A DNA stretch of 64,000 bases from Sphingomonadales bacterium (lineage in GTDB: Bacteria; Pseudomonadota; Alphaproteobacteria; CAZZKF01). The notes under the pieces were generated by a model. The model did no database searches, was not told the origin of the DNA, and saw only the letters and a program-made list of their open reading frames with translations. The DNA lies in contig JBHHWG010000005.1 of the NCBI GenBank assembly GCA_046756385.1, positions 1,817 to 65,816 of the forward strand, in the 5' to 3' direction. Position numbers and translations under genes: made by a program. Shown here piece after piece: positions 2,998 through 63,077 of this stretch (position 1 is the stretch's first letter; every line of letters begins with the position of its first letter).

Positions 2998-4003
2998 ACA
3001 GGCAGCGGGGCTCCGGTCGGCTCGACATTAAACGGTCGGCTCAACAGTTCCTCGATCACCGCATCGATCCCGGCGCCATGATTGAGAATCCTGTTCACGC
3101 CCTGGCAGATGGGCATCTCAATGCCTGTTTTTTCCGCCAGTTCCGCGACCGCGCTGGCGGAAAACACGCCTTCGGCCACGGTATGCCGGGCGCCCAGAAT
3201 ATCGTCGAGGCGTTGTCCCCGGCCCAGCGCCGCGCCCAGGGACATGTTGCGCGATTGTTCGCTGCTGCAGGTCAGAATCAGGTCGCCGAGCCCACAAAGC
3301 CCCATCAGGGTCTCAGAGCTCGCGCCCTTCGCCCGGCCCAGGCGAAGCATTTCGGCGAGGCCACGGCTGACCAGTGCCGCCCGCGCGTTTTCCCCGAGAT
3401 TGCGACCGCTGATAATGCCGCAGGCGATCGCGAGGACATTCTTGATCGCGCCGCCGATCTCCGCGCCGACCAGATCCGGGGCCAGATAAGGCCTGAAAGT
3501 CGGCTGGCCCAGGGCTTCGATCAGAGCGGCGCCGATCCTGGCGTCGGCACAGGCCAGGGTGACCGCGGTCGGCAGTCCGCGCGCCACTTCGGCCGCGAAG
3601 GTCGGCCCGGACAACACCGCAATCGGCGCGTCGGGCAATGTTTCGGCCACCACCTCGGTCATCAGCATGAGGGATTTTTGCTCGATGCCCTTGGAACAGA
3701 TCACCGCCGGGGCGCCCGCCGCCAGATGGTCGCGCAGTTGTTCGGTAACAGTGCGCAGATGCTGTGCCGGCGCCACCAGCAGCACCGCGTCGGCGTCGGA
3801 GATGTCCACCAGATCGCCGGTGGCGCGGATGCGCGAATCGAGATCGATCCCGGCCAGGAAAACCGGGTTTTCATGTCGCGCGTTAATGGCCTCGACAACG
3901 TCCCCTTCCCGCGCCCAGATGACCACGTCATGCCCGGCTCTGGCGGCGACAGTGGCCAGTGCGGTCCCCCAGGCGCCGGCGCCGGCTACAGCTATTTTTT
4001 TCA
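2994..4003 (-). CDS. gpsA: NAD(P)H-dependent glycerol-3-phosphate dehydrogenase
   Basis: VKKIAVAGAGAWGTALA Rossmann motif and a GpsA-like C-terminal half; GTG start at 4003 inside the longer track ORF. Confidence 0.9.
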
Positions 4004-4978: not shown

Positions 4979-5119
4979 ATGAGACGCACTCGATCGAACC
5001 GACGCCCAGACCTGTTCACCGGCGGCGCCAAGATTCTGTTGCTGGTTTTTATTTTCGCCGGCTATGCCACGGCGTTGTCGGACCTGGTGACCGAAACCGG
5101 ATTCGGACGGATTGTGTAA
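4979..5119 (+). CDS. 46-aa single-pass membrane mini-protein, hypothetical; below the ORF-track length cutoff
   Basis: ATG at 4979 is preceded by AGGAGA at -12..-7. Translation: MRRTRSNRRPDLFTGGAKILLLVFIFAGYATALSDLVTETGFGRIV. Basic N-terminus plus one hydrophobic helix. The stop codon overlaps the first base of a hairpin-rich repeat. Confidence 0.5.
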   Translation: MRRTRSNRRPDLFTGGAKILLLVFIFAGYATALSDLVTETGFGRIV

Positions 5120-5277
5120 TACCAAATCCCGATGAGGGCGACTCATCGGGATTTGGTGGACGTGACCCTATTGATTGGAAACAATCAATAGGGTCAAGGA
5201 CTAGCGACCAAGGGGGAGCGCAGCCTGCGTGGCGCTTGAACGCGGATACAAGGGTCATGCTTAATGACCCTTGGTAT
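5119..5277. repeat. MITE-like dispersed repeat, family 1, copy 1 (complete)
   Basis: 7-bp terminal inverted repeats ATACCAA...TTGGTAT. Three internal hairpins: CCAAATCCCGATGAG/CTCATCGGGATTTGG, GACCCTATTGATTG/CAATCAATAGGGTC and AAGGGTCAT/ATGACCCTT. Near-identical copies occur at 15160-15328 and 11356-11438. Confidence 0.7.
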
Positions 5278-5297
5278 AAGCCCCGGCGGCCGCTTGA

Positions 5298-6380
5298 TTA
5301 AGTTGCGATCCGGCGGGTCTGCGCCGCCGCCGGGTCGAGCGGCCAGCGGGCCTTGGCCTCAACATCAAGCCCGTCCATGAGCCCCAGCGCCAATCTCTCG
5401 ATTCCGGCCCAGGCGATCATGGCGCCGTTGTCGGTGCAATATTTCGCCGGCGGCGCCATCAGTTCAAAACCCTGCTCCCGGCACAGCGCGTCGAGTCGCC
5501 TCTTAAGATAAGTGTTGGCGGCCACACCGCCGGCGACCACCAGGACATTCCGGCTCCCCCGCATCGCAGGCGATGCCGCCGCGCGCATGATCTCCATGGC
5601 ATTGCGCGTGCGGTCGCATAAAACATCGGCGACCGCGCCCTGGAAACTGGCGGCGATATCCGCCCTGTCCTGGGCCGACACCGCATTCATGTGGCGCTCC
5701 AACAGCCGGCGCACCGCCGTCTTCAGGCCGGAAAAGGAAAAATCGCATCCTGGGCGGCCGCGCATCGGACGCGGCAATTCAAACCGGTCAGGATCGCCAA
5801 TTTTCGCTGCTTTTTCAATCTCCGGGCCGCCGGGATAACCAAGCTCCAACAGCTTTGCGGTCTTGTCGAACGCTTCTCCGACCGCATCGTCGATGGTGGC
5901 GCCCAGGCGCTGATATCGCGCCACGCCGGAGACCCGAATCAATTGGCAATGACCTCCCGAGACCAGCAACAAAAGATAGGGAAAGTCGATGTCGGCCGTC
6001 AGCCGCGCCGACAGGGCATGGCCCTCCAAATGGTTGACGGCGATGAGCGGCAGGTCCCAGGTCGCGGCGATCGCCTTGCCGGTCATCAGTCCGACGATGA
6101 CACCGCCGATCAGTCCGGGGCCCGCGGTCGCCGCCACCGCGCTCAAGCGATCAAACCCGATGCCGGCGTCCTTCATGACACCGGCGATCAGGCCGTCGAG
6201 CCGCTCGATATGCGATCGGGCGGCGATTTCGGGCACCACGCCGCCATAGGGACGATGCTCGGCGATCTGGCTGTATACGGTTTCCGCCAGCACCCGCTTG
6301 TCGCCGGTGATCACCGCCGCGGCGGTCTCGTCGCAACTGGTCTCGATCCCCAGAACAATGGTGTCCGCACCGGCCGCCAT
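5298..6380 (-). CDS. tsaD: tRNA N6-adenosine threonylcarbamoyltransferase
   Basis: [14 protein letters not shown] and VSGGHCQL...GYPGGP motifs of the Kae1/TsaD family. Confidence 0.9.
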
Positions 6381-6450
6381 GTGCTATTGAACTCCAAAAT
6401 ACGCCGATCCGGTCTGCCGGATCCTTTCAAAGCCTGTTATACGTTGCGCC

Positions 6451-7389
6451 ATGATTTCGCAAGCAAAGCTTCGCATTGGAACCAGGGGCTCGCCCCTCGC
6501 GCTCGCTCAGGCGCACGAGGTCAGGGACCGGCTGGTCAAGGCCCATGGCGACCTCGACGCGGATTGCATCGATATCGTGGTCATCAAGACCAGCGGCGAC
6601 CGCATCCTGGACCGGCCGCTGGCCGATATCGGCGGCAAGGGGCTTTTCACCAAGGAAATCGAGGACGCCCTGCTGACGGGCGACGTCGATCTTGCGGTGC
6701 ATTCGTTCAAGGATGTGGCGACGGTGCTGCCGCCGGGCCTGGTGATCGACTGCGTGCTGGAGCGGGAAGATCCGCGGGACGCCTTTATCAGCCTGAAGGC
6801 GCAAACCCTTGCCGACTTGCCCGCGGGATCGGTGATCGGCACCGCGTCACTGCGCCGTCAGGCCCAGATCCTCGAATTGCGTCCCGAGCTCGAAGTAGTG
6901 AATTTCCGCGGCAATGTCCAAACCCGGCTGCGCAAGCTGCAAGACGGCGTGGTCGACGCCACGCTATTGGCGTGCGCGGGGCTGCGCCGGCTGGGCAAGA
7001 CCGATGTGATCAGTTCCATCATCGAGGTCGAGGACATGCTGCCGGCGGTGGCTCAGGGGGCGATCGCGATCGAGACGCGAGAGAACGACCCGGACACCGC
7101 GCGACGGCTGACGCCGCTTAACCATGCCGCCACACGGGCTTGCGTTGCCGCCGAACGGGCGCTGCTGGAAGCGCTCGACGGCTCGTGCCGGACGCCGATC
7201 GCGGGTTTGGCTCAAATCGAGGGTGACGGCCGGCTTGTTTTGCGCGCCGCGCTCTATACGCCAGACGGCGCCAAAGGCTGGCATGCGGTAAGGCGCGGGC
7301 CGGTTGACGAGGCGCGCCGTCTTGGCCACGACGCCGGGGATGAACTCAAGCGTCTCGCGGGACCCGACTTTCCAGTAGTCGACCAATGA
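6451..7389 (+). CDS. hemC: hydroxymethylbilane synthase (porphobilinogen deaminase)
   Basis: LRIGTRGSPLALAQA N-terminus and GSCRTPIAG cofactor-binding motif. Confidence 0.9.
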   Translation: MISQAKLRIGTRGSPLALAQAHEVRDRLVKAHGDLDADCIDIVVIKTSGDRILDRPLADIGGKGLFTKEIEDALLTGDVDLAVHSFKDVATVLPPGLVIDCVLEREDPRDAFISLKAQTLADLPAGSVIGTASLRRQAQILELRPELEVVNFRGNVQTRLRKLQDGVVDATLLACAGLRRLGKTDVISSIIEVEDMLPAVAQGAIAIETRENDPDTARRLTPLNHAATRACVAAERALLEALDGSCRTPIAGLAQIEGDGRLVLRAALYTPDGAKGWHAVRRGPVDEARRLGHDAGDELKRLAGPDFPVVDQ

Positions 7390-9450: not shown

Positions 9451-10934
9451 TACGGATCATCCTTTACCTCACCCTGGCGATTGCCTTGGCGGTTGTCGCC
9501 GCGTGGTTCGCCGACAATCCGGGCACGGTGGCGGTCGACTGGCTGGGCTATACCGTGGCGGCCCCGGTTGCGCTGGTGCTGTTGCTGATGTCGGGGCTTG
9601 TGATATTGGCGGCCCTGGCCTACCGGCTGTGGCGCTGGTCGCTGGGGGCGCCGGGGGCGGTGCGGTCGTCTTTCGTTGCCCGTGGCCGGCGGCGCGGCGA
9701 TGGCGCAATCGCCGCCGGGCTGGTCGCGGCCGCCGCCGCCGATACCGCCGAGGCCCGCCGTCAGGCCGGGATCGCGGCCAGGCATGTTTCCCCGGGAGAT
9801 ACGCTGCTGTTGCTGCTTGAAGCGCAAATTGCCGGGATTGAGGGCGATGCCGGGCGTATTCAGGCCGCCTGCCATGCCATGCGGGACCATCCGGGCACCG
9901 AACTTCCTGGTATTCTAGGCTTGATCCGCGAGGCCCATGTCAGGGCGGAGGATGGGGAGTTGCTGCCTCTGGCCATGCGGGCGCGGGAGCTGGCGCCGAA
10001 AAATGCCGGCGTGGTGGCGCTGGCCCTGGAACTGTCGATCGATGCCGGCGACTGGGACGAAGCCGCGCGCGCGCTCAAGGAACTGGGTCGTCTCAAGGGC
10101 GTAACCAGGACCCATGCGGCGCGCGCCAGGGCGGCGATGCTCGCTCATCAGGCGCGGGAAGCGGCGGAAGAGGACCGGGAACGGGGTCTCGGCCTGGCGC
10201 GAAGGGCGCACAAGGCGTGGCCCGGCCATCTGGGGGCGGCGCTGATCGCGGCGGAACTGAGCGCCGAGACCGGCAAACCGGACCGCGCGGCGGCAATCCT
10301 TGAACAGGCCTGGAGCCATGCTCCCCATCCGGAAATCGCCATCGCGTATGCGCGGCTGGTTGCCGACGAGACCCCGACCGGGCGATTGCGACGCATCGAG
10401 CGACTTGCGGCGCAAAATCCTGAACATCCTGAAAGCCTCGCGGCGCTGGTCGAACACGCGATTGCCGCGCGTCTTCCTGGCGTCGCCCGGCACCATCTGA
10501 ACGCGCTTTTCAGGTTCGGGCCGTCGGCCCGCGCCTGTCGGCTGGCGGGCGCGCTGATTCAAGAAGAAACCGGGGACCAAAGCGCCGCCCGTTTGTGGCG
10601 GACAAAGGCCGCGCTGGCCCCGGAGCCGGGCTGGCGGTGCGGGCGCTGCCGGCGCCGCTGGGCGGACTGGTCGCTGACCTGCCCCCACTGCCTGGCGGTT
10701 GGCGATATGGAATGGCAAAGAGGGTCCGCGGGCGTCACCACGGCCATGACCGGTATCGCGGTCGCCGAGCCCACGCCCCGGCAGCAGACGGCGCCTCCCG
10801 CTGTCGTGGCAGCGGTCCCGGCCGATCACGACCTGTATCAGACCATAGCCAAGGGCGATGCCCTGGACGCCGCCGATCACTGCGAACAGGAAAAGCAGGA
10901 CGATCAGGAAGCGCGGACCGGCCCGGCGAACTGA
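9447..10934 (+). CDS. HemY N-terminal domain protein (TPR-like) with C-terminal zinc ribbon
   Basis: Two N-terminal TM helices (MIRIILYLTLAIALAVVAAWFADNPG...), TPR-like helical body, and a C-terminal CGRC...CPHC zinc ribbon. ATGA overlap with the upstream gene. Confidence 0.75.
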   Translation: MIRIILYLTLAIALAVVAAWFADNPGTVAVDWLGYTVAAPVALVLLLMSGLVILAALAYRLWRWSLGAPGAVRSSFVARGRRRGDGAIAAGLVAAAAADTAEARRQAGIAARHVSPGDTLLLLLEAQIAGIEGDAGRIQAACHAMRDHPGTELPGILGLIREAHVRAEDGELLPLAMRARELAPKNAGVVALALELSIDAGDWDEAARALKELGRLKGVTRTHAARARAAMLAHQAREAAEEDRERGLGLARRAHKAWPGHLGAALIAAELSAETGKPDRAAAILEQAWSHAPHPEIAIAYARLVADETPTGRLRRIERLAAQNPEHPESLAALVEHAIAARLPGVARHHLNALFRFGPSARACRLAGALIQEETGDQSAARLWRTKAALAPEPGWRCGRCRRRWADWSLTCPHCLAVGDMEWQRGSAGVTTAMTGIAVAEPTPRQQTAPPAVVAAVPADHDLYQTIAKGDALDAADHCEQEKQDDQEARTGPAN

Positions 10935-11196: not shown

Positions 11197-11355
11197 GAGC
11201 GTTTTTAACCTAATCGGAATCAAGTTCGGCTGTTTATATGCCGCCCTGGCGGCGCCCTCAAAGCCTTGCATAGCGCCGCTATGCCGCGTTTTAACGACTT
11301 GCCAGGACAACATCTAAACACCCTCCTTTTGATCCCGATTAAGTTGAAAACGCTC
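11197..11355. repeat. MITE-like repeat, family 2 (complete), with ~25-bp imperfect terminal inverted repeats
   Basis: Left end GAGCGTTTTTAACCTAATCGGAATC and right end GATCCCGATTAAGTTGAAAACGCTC are inverted copies. The left ~76 bp recur at 60998-61073 with 4 mismatches. Located 47 bp downstream of tRNA-Thr. Confidence 0.6.
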
Positions 11356-11438
11356 TAGCGACCAAGGGGGAGCGCAGCCTGCGTGCTGCGTGGCGCTTGA
11401 ACGCGGGTACAAGGGTCATGATCAATGACCCTTGGTAT
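11356..11438. repeat. family-1 MITE-like repeat, copy 2 (right portion only), abutting the family-2 element
   Basis: TAGCGACCAAGGGGGAGCGCAGCCTGCGTG...AAGGGTCATGATCAATGACCCTTGGTAT matches the right halves of copies at 5119-5277 and 15160-15328; left hairpins absent. Confidence 0.6.
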
Positions 11439-11452
11439 AAAACGGACCGGCA

Positions 11453-15033: not shown

Positions 15034-15159
15034 ATTCCAGCAAGCCTGCGAATTCGCATGCCTGAAATTTGGTGTGCGGCGAGGGTGCGTTGTTGCTGAC
15101 CGATGGCGCCTGTGCCGTTGGCACGCGAGACGTCTTGAGCGTGAACGCAAGGTGTGACT

Positions 15160-15328
15160 TATACCAAATCCCGATGAGGACGACTCACTGAGATTTGGGA
15201 GATTTGGTGGACGCTGACCCTATTGATTGGAGACAATCAATAGGGTCAAGGACTAGCGACCAAGAGGGAGTGCAGCCTGCGTGGCGCTTGAACGCAATAT
15301 AAGGGTCATGATCAATGACCCTTGGGAT
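15160..15328. repeat. family-1 MITE-like repeat, copy 3 (complete, with a ~10-bp insertion in hairpin 1)
   Basis: ATACCAAATCCCGATGAGGACGACTCA...CAATCAATAGGGTCAAGGACTAGCGACCAAGAGGGAGTGCAGCCTGCGTGGCGCTTGAACGC...AAGGGTCATGATCAATGACCCTTGGGAT; lies between thrS and infC. Confidence 0.7.
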
Positions 15329-15362
15329 TAGACTAAGGAGGACTTAAATAGCCAGACGACCC

Positions 15363-60546: not shown

Positions 60547-60632
60547 GTTAATTTGATGGCATGGACGCCTCTTGTCCCGGCGCCGAGAGCGTCATAATGG
60601 AAGTTGCTGAACTTCATCAACAGGAGGCGACC

Positions 60633-60836
60633 ATGAGGGATATTACGACAGTTGGATTGGATCTGGCAAAGAGGGTGTTTCAAGTACACGGGGCGGACGG
60701 TGAGGGGCGGATGGTTTTGCGCCGGAAGATGCGGCGCGGCCAGGTGCTGAAGTTTTTTGCCGGGTTGCCGCCGTGCCTGGTTGGTCTGGAGGCCTGTGCC
60801 AGTGCGCATTACTGGGCGCGACTGGGAGCGCATTGA
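60633..60836 (+). pseudogene. IS110-family transposase, N-terminal 67-aa remnant
   Basis: MRDITTVGLDLAKRVFQVHGADGEG...CLVGLEACASAHYWARL matches the DEDD-transposase N-terminus, then an immediate stop. AGGAGG RBS intact. No remainder of the ~340-aa gene downstream. Confidence 0.65.
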
Positions 60837-60997
60837 AACGCCCTACTTTCATGGGATGGGCGAAATACCATTCCCACGAAAGAATCTAAAAGCTTGATCG
60901 GGAAGGTCCGGTTTGGGACCGGAATAGCGAACTACCGCAATCGACTTGGGAAGGAACGTCAATAGCCAAGAAGCGGTCATTCCTTTTTAGGTGCTTA

Positions 60998-61073
60998 GAG
61001 CGTTTTTAACTTAACCGGAATCAAGTTCGGCTGTTTATATGCCGCCCTGGCGGCGCCCTTAAAGCCTTGCATA
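60998..61073. repeat. family-2 repeat, partial copy (left TIR plus ~50 bp)
   Basis: GAGCGTTTTTAACTTAACCGGAATCAAGTTCGGCTGTTTATATGCCGCCCTGGCGGCGCCCTTAAAGCCTTGCATA; 4 mismatches versus 11197-11272. Confidence 0.55.
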
Positions 61074-61252
61074 CCCGCTGCCACCGTCCTCTCTGGCAAT
61101 AGCCCCGACACCCCGCACGGTGTTGTGATATGTAAAAATACATCAGACATGCTATATGATATGCGCTGGCATATCGATCTTGAAATGCTTTCATGGGAAT
61201 GATATATTAAAAGACATTATAGGCTGTCTCAAATATAGAATTATGCATCAAG

Positions 61253-61861
61253 ATGAACTATGCCACCGAATATATCGCCAGCACCCTGAAGGCAGCCCGA
61301 GAAAACAAGGGGCTCAGCCAGCGGGAGCTGAGCGCCAAATCAGGCGTGCCGCAGGGCCATATCTCGAAGATTGAGAACGGGGCTGTTGATCTCAGAGTTT
61401 CAAGCCTGATCGCGTTGGCCCGTATTCTTGAGCTGGAGTTGACGCTCGTGCCCCGCAAAGCGGTGCCTGCCGTCAAATCGATTGCACGAAGCAGTGCACG
61501 CAGCACCCACGGGAAGAGCGGCCAGGATTTGCGTCTGGCCCACCAAGAGCTGACGCGTCTTCAGCTCACCATTGGGAGCTTGCCCAAGATAGCTCTGTCC
61601 ACAAGGGAAGTGGCGCAGCTCCAGCGCCAGGTGAGGGAACTTCAGCATTTTCCGCTTTCACGACCTGATCTTGAAGCGATACGGACAATCAATCAAACAC
61701 TGAAGGCATTCAGGAATAACGCTGGGAATCTGAGCGCTATCCGCCAGTCACTTTCCCAAATTCAAAGTTTGCGCAACGCTCTGGCGCACAGTTCAGTCAA
61801 TGTGCCGCGGATAGAATCCGTGCGCCCTGCCTATAGTCTTGATGAGGACGATCATGGCTGA
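61253..61861 (+). CDS. hipB: HipB-like XRE-family HTH antitoxin with a long C-terminal helical extension (202 aa)
   Basis: N-terminal HTH (LKAARENKGLSQRELSAKSGVPQGHISKIENGAVDLRVSSLIALARIL); overlaps hipA by 8 nt; C-terminal ~110 aa are coiled-coil-like. Confidence 0.7.
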   Translation: MNYATEYIASTLKAARENKGLSQRELSAKSGVPQGHISKIENGAVDLRVSSLIALARILELELTLVPRKAVPAVKSIARSSARSTHGKSGQDLRLAHQELTRLQLTIGSLPKIALSTREVAQLQRQVRELQHFPLSRPDLEAIRTINQTLKAFRNNAGNLSAIRQSLSQIQSLRNALAHSSVNVPRIESVRPAYSLDEDDHG

Positions 61862-63077
61862 TGTCTCCGTCCTCGATGTCCTGCTTTATGACGAGCCGAT
61901 TGGCACACTCACTCGTGTTGGCGGTGACCGCACGCTCTTTGCCTTCAACGATGCCTATATCGAGGATCAAAACCGGCCTGTGCTCGGGCTGAGCTTCAAG
62001 GACCAGTTCGGTGAATTGATCACCGAATTCAGGCCCACCCAAACGCGGGTAATGCCGTTCTTTTCGAATTTGCTCCCTGAAGGGCATATGCGCACTTATC
62101 TGGCCGAGCGTGCCGGTGTAAATCCCGTGCGCGAATTCTTCCTGCTCTGGGTGCTCGGCGTGGATTTGCCAGGGGCGATCACCATCAAGCCTGCTGATGG
62201 TGAAGCATGGCCGCCGGATGCCCATGATGATGGCGATGACAATCATGATAATGATCGTCGCGAAAACGCGCTGAGGTTCTCGCTGGCCGGAGTGCAACTC
62301 AAATTCTCGGCCATCAACGAGGCTCGCGGCGGACTGACAATTCCTGCCAAAGGTATTGGCGGTTCGTGGATCGTGAAGCTGCCCTCGCGTGAGTTTGCCG
62401 GTGTACCCGAGAACGAATTCTCGATGTTGACGTTGGCCCGGCTCATCGGCATGGATGTACCGGCACTGCAACTCGTCGATATCGATGCGATCAAGAATTT
62501 GCCAGAAGATATCGGGGCTTTGCAAGGGCAAGCCCTCGTCATCGAGCGCTTTGACCGGCAGCAGGGCAGCTACGCCGTTCACATTGAGGACTTTGCGCAA
62601 ATTTTCGGGATTTATCCCGAGGACAAATACAAAAGAGCCAGTCACCGGAGCATTGCAAGGGTGATTGCCGCCGAGGGTGGCGAGGCCGACATTGTCGAAT
62701 TTGTCCGGCGTATGACTTTCAACGTGCTGATCGGCAATGCCGATATGCACATGAAAAACTGGTCGATGATCTATTCGGACCGGCGTAATGCCGCGCTGGC
62801 TCCGGCCTATGATTTTGTTTCAACGATTCCGTACATGCCGGATTGCAACGCCGCTCTGAATTTTAGCCGGACCAAGCGCTTCAATGAATTTTCGGAGGAC
62901 GAGCTTTCCCATCTTGCCGCCAAGGCCCTGCTGCCGGAAAAGCTTGTTCTCGATACCGCGCGTGAAACCGTCGCCCTGTTTCATCAGCACTGGCAGGCGG
63001 AAAAGGCAAACCTGCCGCTATCTGTAGACGTAATTAAGGCGGTCGAAGATCATCTCTTAGTGATCCCCATTGCCTAA
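61854..63077 (+). CDS. hipA: HipA-family Ser/Thr kinase toxin
   Basis: HipA_N Couple motif LAGVQLKFSA, catalytic loop GNADMHMKNWS (D-x-H-x-K-N), YDFVST Mg-binding motif. Confidence 0.85.
   Translation: MADVSVLDVLLYDEPIGTLTRVGGDRTLFAFNDAYIEDQNRPVLGLSFKDQFGELITEFRPTQTRVMPFFSNLLPEGHMRTYLAERAGVNPVREFFLLWVLGVDLPGAITIKPADGEAWPPDAHDDGDDNHDNDRRENALRFSLAGVQLKFSAINEARGGLTIPAKGIGGSWIVKLPSREFAGVPENEFSMLTLARLIGMDVPALQLVDIDAIKNLPEDIGALQGQALVIERFDRQQGSYAVHIEDFAQIFGIYPEDKYKRASHRSIARVIAAEGGEADIVEFVRRMTFNVLIGNADMHMKNWSMIYSDRRNAALAPAYDFVSTIPYMPDCNAALNFSRTKRFNEFSEDELSHLAAKALLPEKLVLDTARETVALFHQHWQAEKANLPLSVDVIKAVEDHLLVIPIA

Follow-up and report, generated by a model that had tools for sequence, protein, structure and literature searches.

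Probable IS630-family miniature elements of Alphaproteobacteria carry an interior module shared with MOBQ relaxase leaders

Results

Three copies of one repeat family in a 64-kb window

The DNA considered here, hereafter called the window, is a stretch of 64,000 nt of contig JBHHWG010000005.1 from a Sphingomonadales bacterium. It contains three copies of a short repeat, all on the + strand and all 3′ of genes, and this report concerns the origin of these repeats and of a strictly conserved block in their interior. The copies measure 157, 166 and 82 bp, the last being partial, and no open reading frame (ORF) is confined to the element. An initial annotation of the window, made from the sequence alone, had placed them correctly to within 1–3 bases. 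No fourth copy was found in the window, even in a low-stringency search, and the 22-nt core introduced below matches three times in the window versus 0 times in shuffled windows. The copies comprise the following features.

5117–5119, + strand: left duplicated triplet TAA of copy 1, which is also the stop codon of the 46-aa ORF 4979–5119 and matches the TAA at 5277–5279
5120–5276, + strand: copy 1, putative complete miniature inverted-repeat transposable element (MITE), 157 bp, with ends TACCAA...TTGGTA (from sequence and a fold z-score of −9.7)
5121–5157, + strand: HP1, terminal foldback ACCAAATCCCGATGAG / CTCATCGGGATTTGGT, 16 bp, perfect (from folding)
5163–5196, + strand: HP2, TGACCCTATTGATTG / CAATCAATAGGGTCA, 15 bp, perfect, with a subfamily-specific sequence (from folding)
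5201–5221, + strand: upstream arm of the putative passenger module, CTAGCGACCAAGGGGGAGCGC, whose AGCG(A)CCA is complementary to TGGCGCT of the core
5222–5243, + strand: invariant core AGCCTGCGTGGCGCTTGAACGC, a block also found upstream of MOBQ relaxase genes
5249–5273, + strand: HP3, terminal foldback CAAGGGTCAT / ATGACCCTTG, 10 bp, perfect, resembling the end of an IS630-family element (from folding)
5277–5279, + strand: right duplicated triplet TAA of copy 1 (from sequence)
15159–15161, + strand: left duplicated triplet TTA of copy 2 (from sequence)
15162–15327, + strand: copy 2, 166 bp, in the thrS–infC spacer, with the core at 15274–15295 and the right end mutated to GGGA
15328–15330, + strand: right duplicated triplet TTA of copy 2 (from sequence)
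11356–11437, + strand: copy 3, right part only (module and HP3), 82 bp, starting at CTAGCG, with the 19-mer of the core at 11386–11404
11438–11440, + strand: right flanking triplet TAA of copy 3 (from sequence)

The three perfect palindromes initially described for the family are present in copy 1, whereas HP1 of copy 2 is disrupted by a 10-nt tandem duplication at 15190–15209. This duplication is the insertion that had been assigned to copy 3; the latter has instead a 7-nt tandem duplication, CTGCGTG, at 11379–11392. Copies 1 and 2 are 87.6% identical over 169 columns, and reach the previously reported level of more than 90% only when the 10-nt indel is ignored (~93%); copy 3 shows 95% identity over its last 55 nt. 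Fold z-scores are −9.7 for the + strand and −8.8 for the − strand of copy 1, and −6.6 for copy 2. Between HP2 and HP3, the stretch 5201–5243 of copy 1 (CTAGCGACCAAGGGGGAGCGC-AGCCTGCGTGGCGCTTGAACGC) looks unpaired. In other genomes a hairpin likewise occupies the position of HP1, but with a different sequence, and several loci (L013, L077, L112 and L130; L numbers are our handles for loci and contigs) have unrelated hairpins in place of HP2.

The terminal repeats had been given as 7 bp, ATACCAA/TTGGTAT. These are found in copy 1 and not in copy 2, which ends in TTGGGAT, and they are better parsed as TACCAA/TTGGTA with a duplicated triplet outside. A position 3′ of genes had also been reported for all three copies. 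Copy 1 indeed abuts the stop codon of ORF 4979–5119; copy 2 begins 128 nt past the thrS stop and ends 32 nt ahead of infC, and copy 3 is located 206 nt 3′ of tRNA-Thr, behind a different MITE of 159 bp (11197–11355). The left edge of copy 3 is the exact end of this second MITE, and its missing left half is not found upstream of it: copy 3 has been cut by the other MITE and is not a decayed half. This truncation had escaped the initial annotation, as had the wider distribution of the interior described below.

Ends and flanking triplets match those of IS630-family elements

In other genomes, elements of the form TACC...GGTA are flanked by TAA/TAA, TTA/TTA or TGA/TGA. TNA/TNA flank pairs (N, any base) were identical in 11 of 16 cases in one sample and in 11 of 15 in a second, compared to ~0.3 expected from triplet frequencies, and the triplet following GGTA was TNA in 22 of 37 copies. 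As the outer triplets match each other, we prefer a 3-bp TNA duplication over the duplication of TA. The inverted ends, TACCAA/TTGGTA in copy 1, extend to as many as 16 matches out of 16 in related elements elsewhere. OZ245893.1, a complete alphaproteobacterial chromosome, contains two larger elements with the same ends, TACCARCGG (TACCAACGGAA..), and matched TNA flanks. Their positions and ends are as follows.

L111, 5490–6661: IS630-family element, 1172 bp, TAA-TACCAACGGAAAAATT...ATTCTTGCCGCTGGTA-TAA
L066, 3303–5806: IS630-family element with TTA/TTA flanks and an IS110 element nested inside

Each has two consecutive ORFs (in L111, spanning 5504–6567 and separated by a frameshift), in which Pfam searches recognise an IS630-type helix-turn-helix and a DDE_3 catalytic domain (DDE_3, E = 5e-27 and 1e-28; HTH_Tnp_IS630, E = 2e-17; HTH_32/33 as well; accessions PF13358, PF01710, PF13565 and PF13592). 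Their ends contain a short foldback, to which the right end of the window element is similar (TACCAAsGG..TTAArnATGACC). One IS630-family element has as neighbours a core-bearing MITE, whose left end reads TACCAGCGA, and a solo foldback of two ends, 40 bp long. These are part of a nest of TACC-type elements in OZ245893.1 (L111 4441–6830), comprising the IS630-family copy, the solo foldback and the core-bearing MITE, and long inverted segments (L111 4450–4643 versus 6665–6800) bracket this nest.

The initial proposal of a MITE-type mobile repeat is thus borne out by inverted ends, duplicated triplets, the lack of an ORF, a family spread over many genomes and IS630-family elements with the same ends. 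These similarities support the assignment of the window repeats to MITEs of an IS630-family transposase, their mobility in the source genome being judged from the elements of other genomes. A transposase encoded elsewhere in the genome would cut at the TACCA ends and paste the element into a TNA site, duplicating the triplet, with HP1 and HP3 representing back-to-back copies of the end that it binds. In a genome of 60% G+C, the tolerated TNA sites would mostly be found in stop codons and in the A+T-rich spacers that follow genes. Such targeting would explain both the placement right after stop codons and the excess of copies between convergent genes: where our own crude gene caller assigned both neighbours, the context was convergent for 27 copies, tandem for 25 (14 + 11) and divergent for 4. 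For copy 1, the insertion appears to have fallen exactly on the stop codon of the 46-aa ORF, with the duplicated TAA preserving the stop. With respect to copy 2, a relative whose InfC is 83% identical has a thrS–infC spacer of 142 nt without the element, compared to 329 nt in the window. Most likely, the copies in the window are neutral passengers.

The family extends across Alphaproteobacteria, Acidimicrobiia and phages

To follow the family beyond the window, we scanned one genome per species for the exact 19-mer that is invariant in the three window copies. Among the matches listed, at least 113 stretches from more than 40 assemblies contained this 19-mer, and the flanks differed in every case. 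The carriers are Alphaproteobacteria of many orders, several Acidimicrobiia and six phage-type contigs, the Alphaproteobacteria including Kiloniellales, Rhodovibrionaceae, Methyloligellaceae, Marinicaulis, Rhodobiaceae, Caenispirillum, Azospirillum, Rhodobium, Jiella, Asticcacaulis and a metagenome-assembled genome (MAG) of Rickettsiales. One Ilumatobacter MAG (Acidimicrobiia) has ~30 core copies, and several MAGs carry dozens per genome. From genome to genome, the surroundings of the core change and the layout stays constant, consisting of a terminal hairpin, one or two small hairpins, the core and another terminal hairpin. In a metagenome scan, the window subtype itself gave 5 matches only. 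Some genomes have tandem arrays (L015, L088, L122).

The phage-type contigs, from IMG/VR (L115, L116, L119, L120, L121 and L122), have core-bearing elements beside capsid and terminase genes; in L122, a tandem array built from units of ~119 nt is placed between terminase and cell-wall hydrolase genes. One IMG/VR copy is found ~190 nt from an ArdC-like anti-restriction gene. BLAST searches with the window element and a type-B consensus yielded no match to PLSDB plasmids, and the module had none in E. coli genomes, so that the core is no piece of a universal RNA that is also conserved in that species. It is also without similarity to 16S, 23S or 5S rRNA, as judged against an alphaproteobacterial rRNA operon that carries a spacer copy. 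Such spacer copies occur between tRNA-Ala and 23S in a Rhodospirillales MAG (L059 4702–4723, sense) and in Asticcacaulis (L093 132–150, antisense); a few copies lie beside tRNA genes or in rRNA operon spacers, and the association with tRNAs does not exceed expectation. Clustering of the ORFs at 113 loci gave only spurious or housekeeping clusters, with no recurrent neighbour protein.

A local segmental duplication, or an artefact in the assembly of the contig, might have been suspected from the finding of only three copies in 64 kb, all on one strand. This explanation is refuted by the presence of core and architecture in more than 40 other assemblies, each time between different flanks, and every window copy has a flanking triplet and indels of its own; we give it practically no credence.

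The interior is a conserved module found in unrelated backbones

A tolerant search of the fetched loci retrieved 164 copies of the core, with the 22-nt consensus AGCCTGCGTGGCG-NNT-GAACGC. Variation among them is almost entirely confined to three central positions, and the cores of Alphaproteobacteria and Acidimicrobiia are identical in 19–22 nt. Directly upstream of the core lie two small helices, in which pairing is kept through compensatory changes, with GCGC, GGGC, GGCC or GCCC stems in one set of variants and CGCGCC-TTAT-GGCGCG versus CGCACC..GGTGCG versus CGCCGC..GCGGCG in another. In 62 distinct sequences of these helices, 85.8% of the cells are paired, the covariation score was not attained by any of 500 shuffles, and registers that were slid collapse; helix P2 is 98% paired, with double changes at three of its four pairs. 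This covariation is supportive and not proof, given that the shuffle control does not remove relatedness. In two metagenome contigs (L128/L129), the three variable central bases of the core are replaced by an 18-nt hairpin, GGCGC[CAGGGGCCGAAGGCCCTG]AACGC. The combination of a constant, unpaired-looking block with covarying helices and a tolerated stem insertion is what would be expected of a site that is read in folded single strands.

The IS630-family elements contain neither the core nor anything complementary to it. The module interior, to go by this comparison, does not derive from the insertion sequence and would constitute passenger cargo. Core copies were found in at least three unrelated MITE backbones, with duplications of 3 bp, 5 bp and probably 2 bp.

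TACCAA type: TNA flanks
TAGAGC...GCTCTA type: L007, L047 and L090
Ilumatobacter type: 186 bp, 16-bp ends CCTGRATCCACCGATC, 5-bp duplication, e.g. CTCAC, TTCAT or CTGAG

Judging from their termini, these backbones cannot owe their ends to a common ancestor. The module is also found bare, with no inverted ends around it. In a Methyloligellaceae MAG (L073, ~940–1040), three bare cores are arranged in tandem at a spacing of 33 nt (CTGCGTGGCGCTTGAACGCAAAACTAAAA..), 3′ of one full module; this array, which looks iteron-like, lies between a MazF/PemK-like toxin gene and ffh.

Readings as RNA or as HUH-type repeats find little support

It had been suggested that the repeats double as transcription terminators or RNA-stability elements, or that they are paralogous small RNA genes with promoters of their own. 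We find no T-run after HP1, HP2 or HP3 on either strand, and a terminator scan returned one weak match compared to 0.5–0.9 expected. The copies contain 0 promoter-like sites, and the promoter scan did not exceed the shuffled expectation. Rfam searches gave only tRNAs and noise for the whole window at gathering score, and only noise for copy 1 at E ≤ 10. In tandem contexts, the two orientations occur 14 and 11 times, and the copies in the rRNA spacers of L059 and L093 are oppositely oriented; this absence of an orientation bias argues against a strand-specific role as RNA.

A function as RNA, be it as structured 3′-UTR stabilisers or terminators or as small RNA genes with the core as seed or protein-binding sequence, would nevertheless be in keeping with the very stable hairpins at gene 3′ ends, the compensatory changes in the small helices and the somewhat higher number of G-U than of A-C imperfections on the core strand (83 versus 59). 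Against this, U-tracts, promoters and Rfam matches were not found in the searches above, tandem copies are antisense as often as sense, and both strands fold nearly equally well. Moreover, RNA can be protected by whatever hairpin lies at its 3′ end, which would make such an effect a by-product. We therefore hold an RNA function to be improbable. The idea of an antisense action was dropped, the module being without complementarity to IS630 elements.

Some features also recall repetitive extragenic palindromes (REP) and bacterial interspersed mosaic elements (BIME) that are multiplied by a domesticated HUH tyrosine transposase of the RAYT or IS200/IS605 type, including PATE-like TnpB guide scaffolds: the repeats are rich in hairpins that covary, mosaic and modular, and they form tandem arrays in L015, L088 and L122. 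But HUH transposition makes no duplication, whereas the matched flanking triplets and the inverted ends are shared with IS630-family elements. The copies lack a GTAG-type REP head, no protein recurs beside the 113 loci, nor is any gene recurrently flanked, and there is no TnpB-, IscB-, HEARO- or IS605-orfB-type Rfam match. The REP/RAYT assignment and the relation to IS200/IS605, PATE or TnpB/IscB scaffolds, the last of which the initial annotation had wished to see examined, were rejected on these grounds, and we rate this origin as very improbable.

A number of further identities were considered for the core and discarded, either because it did not fit the respective consensus or because the orientation data spoke against them. 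These were sigma-32, extracytoplasmic-function (ECF) sigma factor and sigma-54 promoters, the LexA box and the integration host factor (IHF) site, as well as attC, dif, boxA, tRNA-like, CRISPR-repeat-like and ribozyme sequences.

The core recurs in the leaders of MOBQ relaxase genes

In Jiella pacifica (L110), a bare module is located ~115 nt upstream of a gene for a MobA/MobL (MOBQ) relaxase, on the same strand (Pfam MobA_MobL, E = 4e-36). Nearby genes encode an antitoxin and a DUF2958 protein. We compared the locus with those of seven further homologues, 38–60% identical, together with their surroundings (8 loci in total). In six of the seven fetched loci, the relaxase gene is followed by an ORF of 140–165 aa and then by an inverted pair, namely an ORF of ~225–260 aa and a TraG-type coupling protein (TraG-D_C). 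L140 has two extra ORFs between the small ORF and the inverted pair, and L141 has a 584-aa inverted ORF without Pfam match instead of the pair.

The core is present ~110–135 nt upstream of the relaxase gene, on the same strand, in five of the eight loci (L110, L135, L136, L137 and L140), the relaxases of which are no more than 43–60% identical. It reads AGCCTGCGTGGCGCCTGAACGC in L135, ..GCAATTGAACGC in L136, ..GCAACTGAACGC in L137 and AGCCTGCATGGCACGTGAATGC in L140, the differences falling mostly at the centre that is also variable in the MITEs, with two further changes outside it in L140. One hairpin precedes the core and another follows it. A match of such quality would arise by chance within 300 nt at ~2e-5 per locus, so that its occurrence in five of eight loci is not due to chance. 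A sequence located further upstream, ..AAGCGACCAC.., is common to the relaxase leaders; it is reminiscent of CTAGCGACCAAG in the window element and is able to pair with GTGGCGCTT in the core. The leaders of L110 (4380–4470), L134–L137 and L140 contain another conserved block, consisting of a CCTCCCC..GGGGG hairpin, a GGCC-CGAGC-GGCC hairpin and then AAGCGACCACGG; the 3′ part of this last block could pair with GTGGCGCTT of the core as well, a pairing that the observed covariation does not support.

The link between the core and this relaxase family is a matter of sequence, and its function is what we infer from it. The cargo of the MITEs would accordingly appear to be a piece of the transfer-gene leader, i.e. 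of the origin-of-transfer (oriT) region, of a family of mobilisable or conjugative elements. Adjacency to a relaxase gene holds for the core copies of plasmids or integrative and conjugative elements, not for those of MITEs. It is conceivable that the module serves as a recognition site for the relaxase or relaxosome in folded single-stranded DNA, as an oriT-like site or as an accessory of a nick site, although we consider the odds to be against it. With the same reservation, the MITE copies may be targets of the transfer machinery with real consequences, be it by mobilisation, recombination or titration. A MITE with a site for the transfer machinery would gain a link to conjugative transfer, and this link would account for the strict conservation of the module and for its spread across phyla. 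More specifically, unrelated MITE backbones in two phyla might independently carry one and the same recognition module of MOBQ elements and thereby scatter its copies through chromosomes and phages, a proposal we regard as decidedly doubtful. For the favoured reading as a whole, an IS630-family MITE with a passenger module from a transfer region, we estimate a probability of roughly 70%.

Several observations weigh against this reading or parts of it. The window has no gene for a transposase, a relaxase or a coupling protein. IS630/Tc1-mariner elements canonically duplicate TA, not three bases. The ends read TNA-TACC...GGTA-TNA, and a parse as TA-CC..GG-TA is possible but leaves the matching outer triplets unexplained; a 3-bp TNA duplication seems to fit better, a preference that is based on matched flanks and not on an empty site, the thrS–infC spacers of relatives being too diverged for a base-level comparison of this kind. 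With regard to the cargo, the elements show no orientation bias relative to local GC skew, and the G-T versus A-C imperfections of the hairpins (83 versus 59, and 24 versus 15) lean slightly to the core strand without pointing clearly to one strand or one type of nucleic acid. The core is missing from three of the eight relaxase loci. All eight have a second block, hereafter block 2, in which a covarying hairpin, GCAAAC-N4-GTTTGC, is followed by GTATACGAGCATC (..TGCGTATACG..; GCAAAC..GTTTGCGTATACGAGCATC), with L141 showing TTGGC-AAA-GCCAA and TGCGTATACGTG. Block 2 is nearer than the core to the GCGC-TTATAC regions that precede mobQ on known plasmids of Alphaproteobacteria, and is more likely than the core to be the nick site. 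In this case, the core could represent another site within that region, for instance a site for the relaxase or an accessory protein, a regulatory operator or a signal read in the single strand after transfer. If it is accessory or regulatory in this sense, the MITEs may be without a complete oriT.

This leads to the question of whether the core is simply an operator or promoter element in double-stranded DNA, such as the site of a mob-operon regulator, which was spread by MITEs, has no part in DNA processing, and whose chromosomal copies titrate or recruit the regulator. Its location in the relaxase operon leader, ahead of the better nick candidate, would be well explained in this way, as would the three relaxase loci that manage without it and the random orientation relative to host genes that is expected of a DNA site. 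However, no sigma-70-like promoter was found, and the core lacks dyad or direct-repeat symmetry beyond GCGT/ACGC. The covarying hairpins and the hairpin inserted into the middle of the core in L128/L129 suggest that the site is a folded single strand and not a duplex, and a regulator common to Alphaproteobacteria and Acidimicrobiia would itself need to be mobile. We consider a purely regulatory, double-stranded site unlikely, and retain the MITE with a module from a transfer region as our working interpretation.

Discussion

While MITEs are usually seen as stripped-down transposons with an interior that is junk or a remnant of the parent insertion sequence, the interior of the elements described here is their most conserved part. 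Its conservation, the differing ends and duplications of the backbones around it and its presence in relaxase leaders make it look like selected cargo. As mobile elements, they are otherwise of an ordinary kind, IS630-family MITEs with a design closest to that of Correia elements in Neisseria or RUP in Streptococcus pneumoniae. Both of the latter are bacterial MITEs derived from IS630/Tc1-mariner elements. In common with these, the present elements are ~100–200 bp long and without an ORF, share their inverted ends with an element that encodes an IS630-family transposase, insert at T..A sites, reach dozens of copies and prefer gene 3′ ends. Correia elements also have an internal site unrelated to the transposase, namely for IHF. 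Unlike in Correia and RUP, the flanks here behave as a 3-bp TNA duplication and not as TA, each end is a complete foldback hairpin, and the interior is a cross-phylum passenger module shared with relaxase leaders; we know of no such passenger cargo in either family. New, then, are the apparent TNA duplication and the terminal foldbacks that are able to exist alone, and, so far as the comparison of sequences allows, a passenger module that is more constrained than the transposon ends, occurs in unrelated backbones of two phyla and in phages, and is homologous to a block in MOBQ leaders. REP/BIME and RIME-type repeats resemble the elements in being mosaics of palindromic units, in their intergenic location at gene 3′ ends and in their occasional tandem arrays. 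They differ in that ends and duplications here point to a DDE transposase, that the REP head motif is missing and that the core is conserved far past the species or genus.

For the cargo, the closest parallel is found in the oriT regions of MOBQ elements (RSF1010/R1162, pSK41 NES, pTi), in which a hairpin followed by a conserved stretch is read by the relaxase as single-stranded DNA. As in these, a MobA/MobL gene is closely preceded, on the same strand, by a hairpin and then a strictly conserved stretch. The core module, a hairpin, 2–4 nt and the conserved 22-mer, loosely resembles TAAGTGCGCCCT, which we take to be the RSF1010 nick region and which a string check located between mobB/A and mobC of IncQ/MOBQ plasmids. 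Thus, RSF1010 has a hairpin and TAAGTGCGCCCT, and the commonest MITE type (type-B module) a hairpin and TAAGCCTGCGTGGCGCTTGAAC. The resemblance is one of sequence, however, and block 2, found in all eight loci, fits the known MOBQ nick regions better and is the better nick candidate. Carrying a putative site without a relaxase, the MITE copies are also reminiscent of the oriT-only hitchers termed pOriT and iOriT, but the carrier here is a 150-bp MITE with many chromosomal and phage copies and not a plasmid or an integrative element. A review of hitcher elements places MITEs and oriT-only elements (pOriT, iOriT) in separate classes (PMC11389934). Apart from this review, our literature search, of incomplete coverage and hence provisional, found no paper that joins MITEs with oriT, and nothing relevant on the core, its complement or sub-strings, on block 2 or on alphaproteobacterial MITEs.

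If the cargo were a working transfer signal, it would tie mobility within genomes to conjugative mobility, offering a mechanism for the spread of MITEs across phyla and possibly for the mobilisation or rearrangement of chromosomal and phage DNA. Should a relaxosome act on the MITE copies, these would be double hitchers, carried within genomes by a transposase and from cell to cell by a relaxase; neighbouring host or phage DNA would become mobilisable in trans, or the copies would provide landing or recombination sites for incoming elements. Such a link between transposition and conjugation, if true, has not been described previously. Even if the cargo were only a site for a regulator, a control element of plasmids would have been sown through host genomes.

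For the annotation of the window, it follows that the repeats should be labelled as MITE copies and not as terminators or small RNAs, that the 46-aa ORF ends in a stop codon which is at the same time the insertion duplication, and that the thrS–infC spacer has been enlarged by an insertion just upstream of the ribosome-binding site of infC.

Further observations in the window

The 46-aa ORF 4979–5119 looks like a real small membrane protein, being preceded at 7 nt by a good ribosome-binding site, AGGAG, and having a hydrophobic core, KILLLVFIFAGYATAL; it has no Pfam match. Directly 3′ of copy 2, the 30 nt ahead of infC (15331–15362, AAGGAG..TAAATAGCCAGACGACC) are conserved in relatives (L123, ~9970–10000; L125, ~3905–3935), the rest of whose thrS–infC spacers cannot be aligned.

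The second MITE-like element, at 11197–11355, is unrelated to the family described above. It is 159 bp long, with inverted ends of ~28 bp, GAGCGTTTTTAACCTAATCGGAATCAAG / CTTTTGATCCCGATTAAGTTGAAAACGCTC (GAGCGTTTTTAAC...), and its flanks (TTA-GAGCG and CGCTC-TAGCG) suggest an insertion at TA or CTAG, in this instance into the CTAG of the module of copy 3. Its first 76 nt recur at 60998–61073 with 96% identity, beyond which the two sequences diverge.

Finally, the region 60561–63077 is an island-like stretch of lower G+C. It begins with an N-terminal fragment (60561–60836) that resembles an IS110-family transposase, VGLDLAKRVFQVH, and gives no Pfam match at such a length, and it also contains a hipB-like XRE gene (61253–61861) that overlaps a hipA-like kinase gene (61839–63077).

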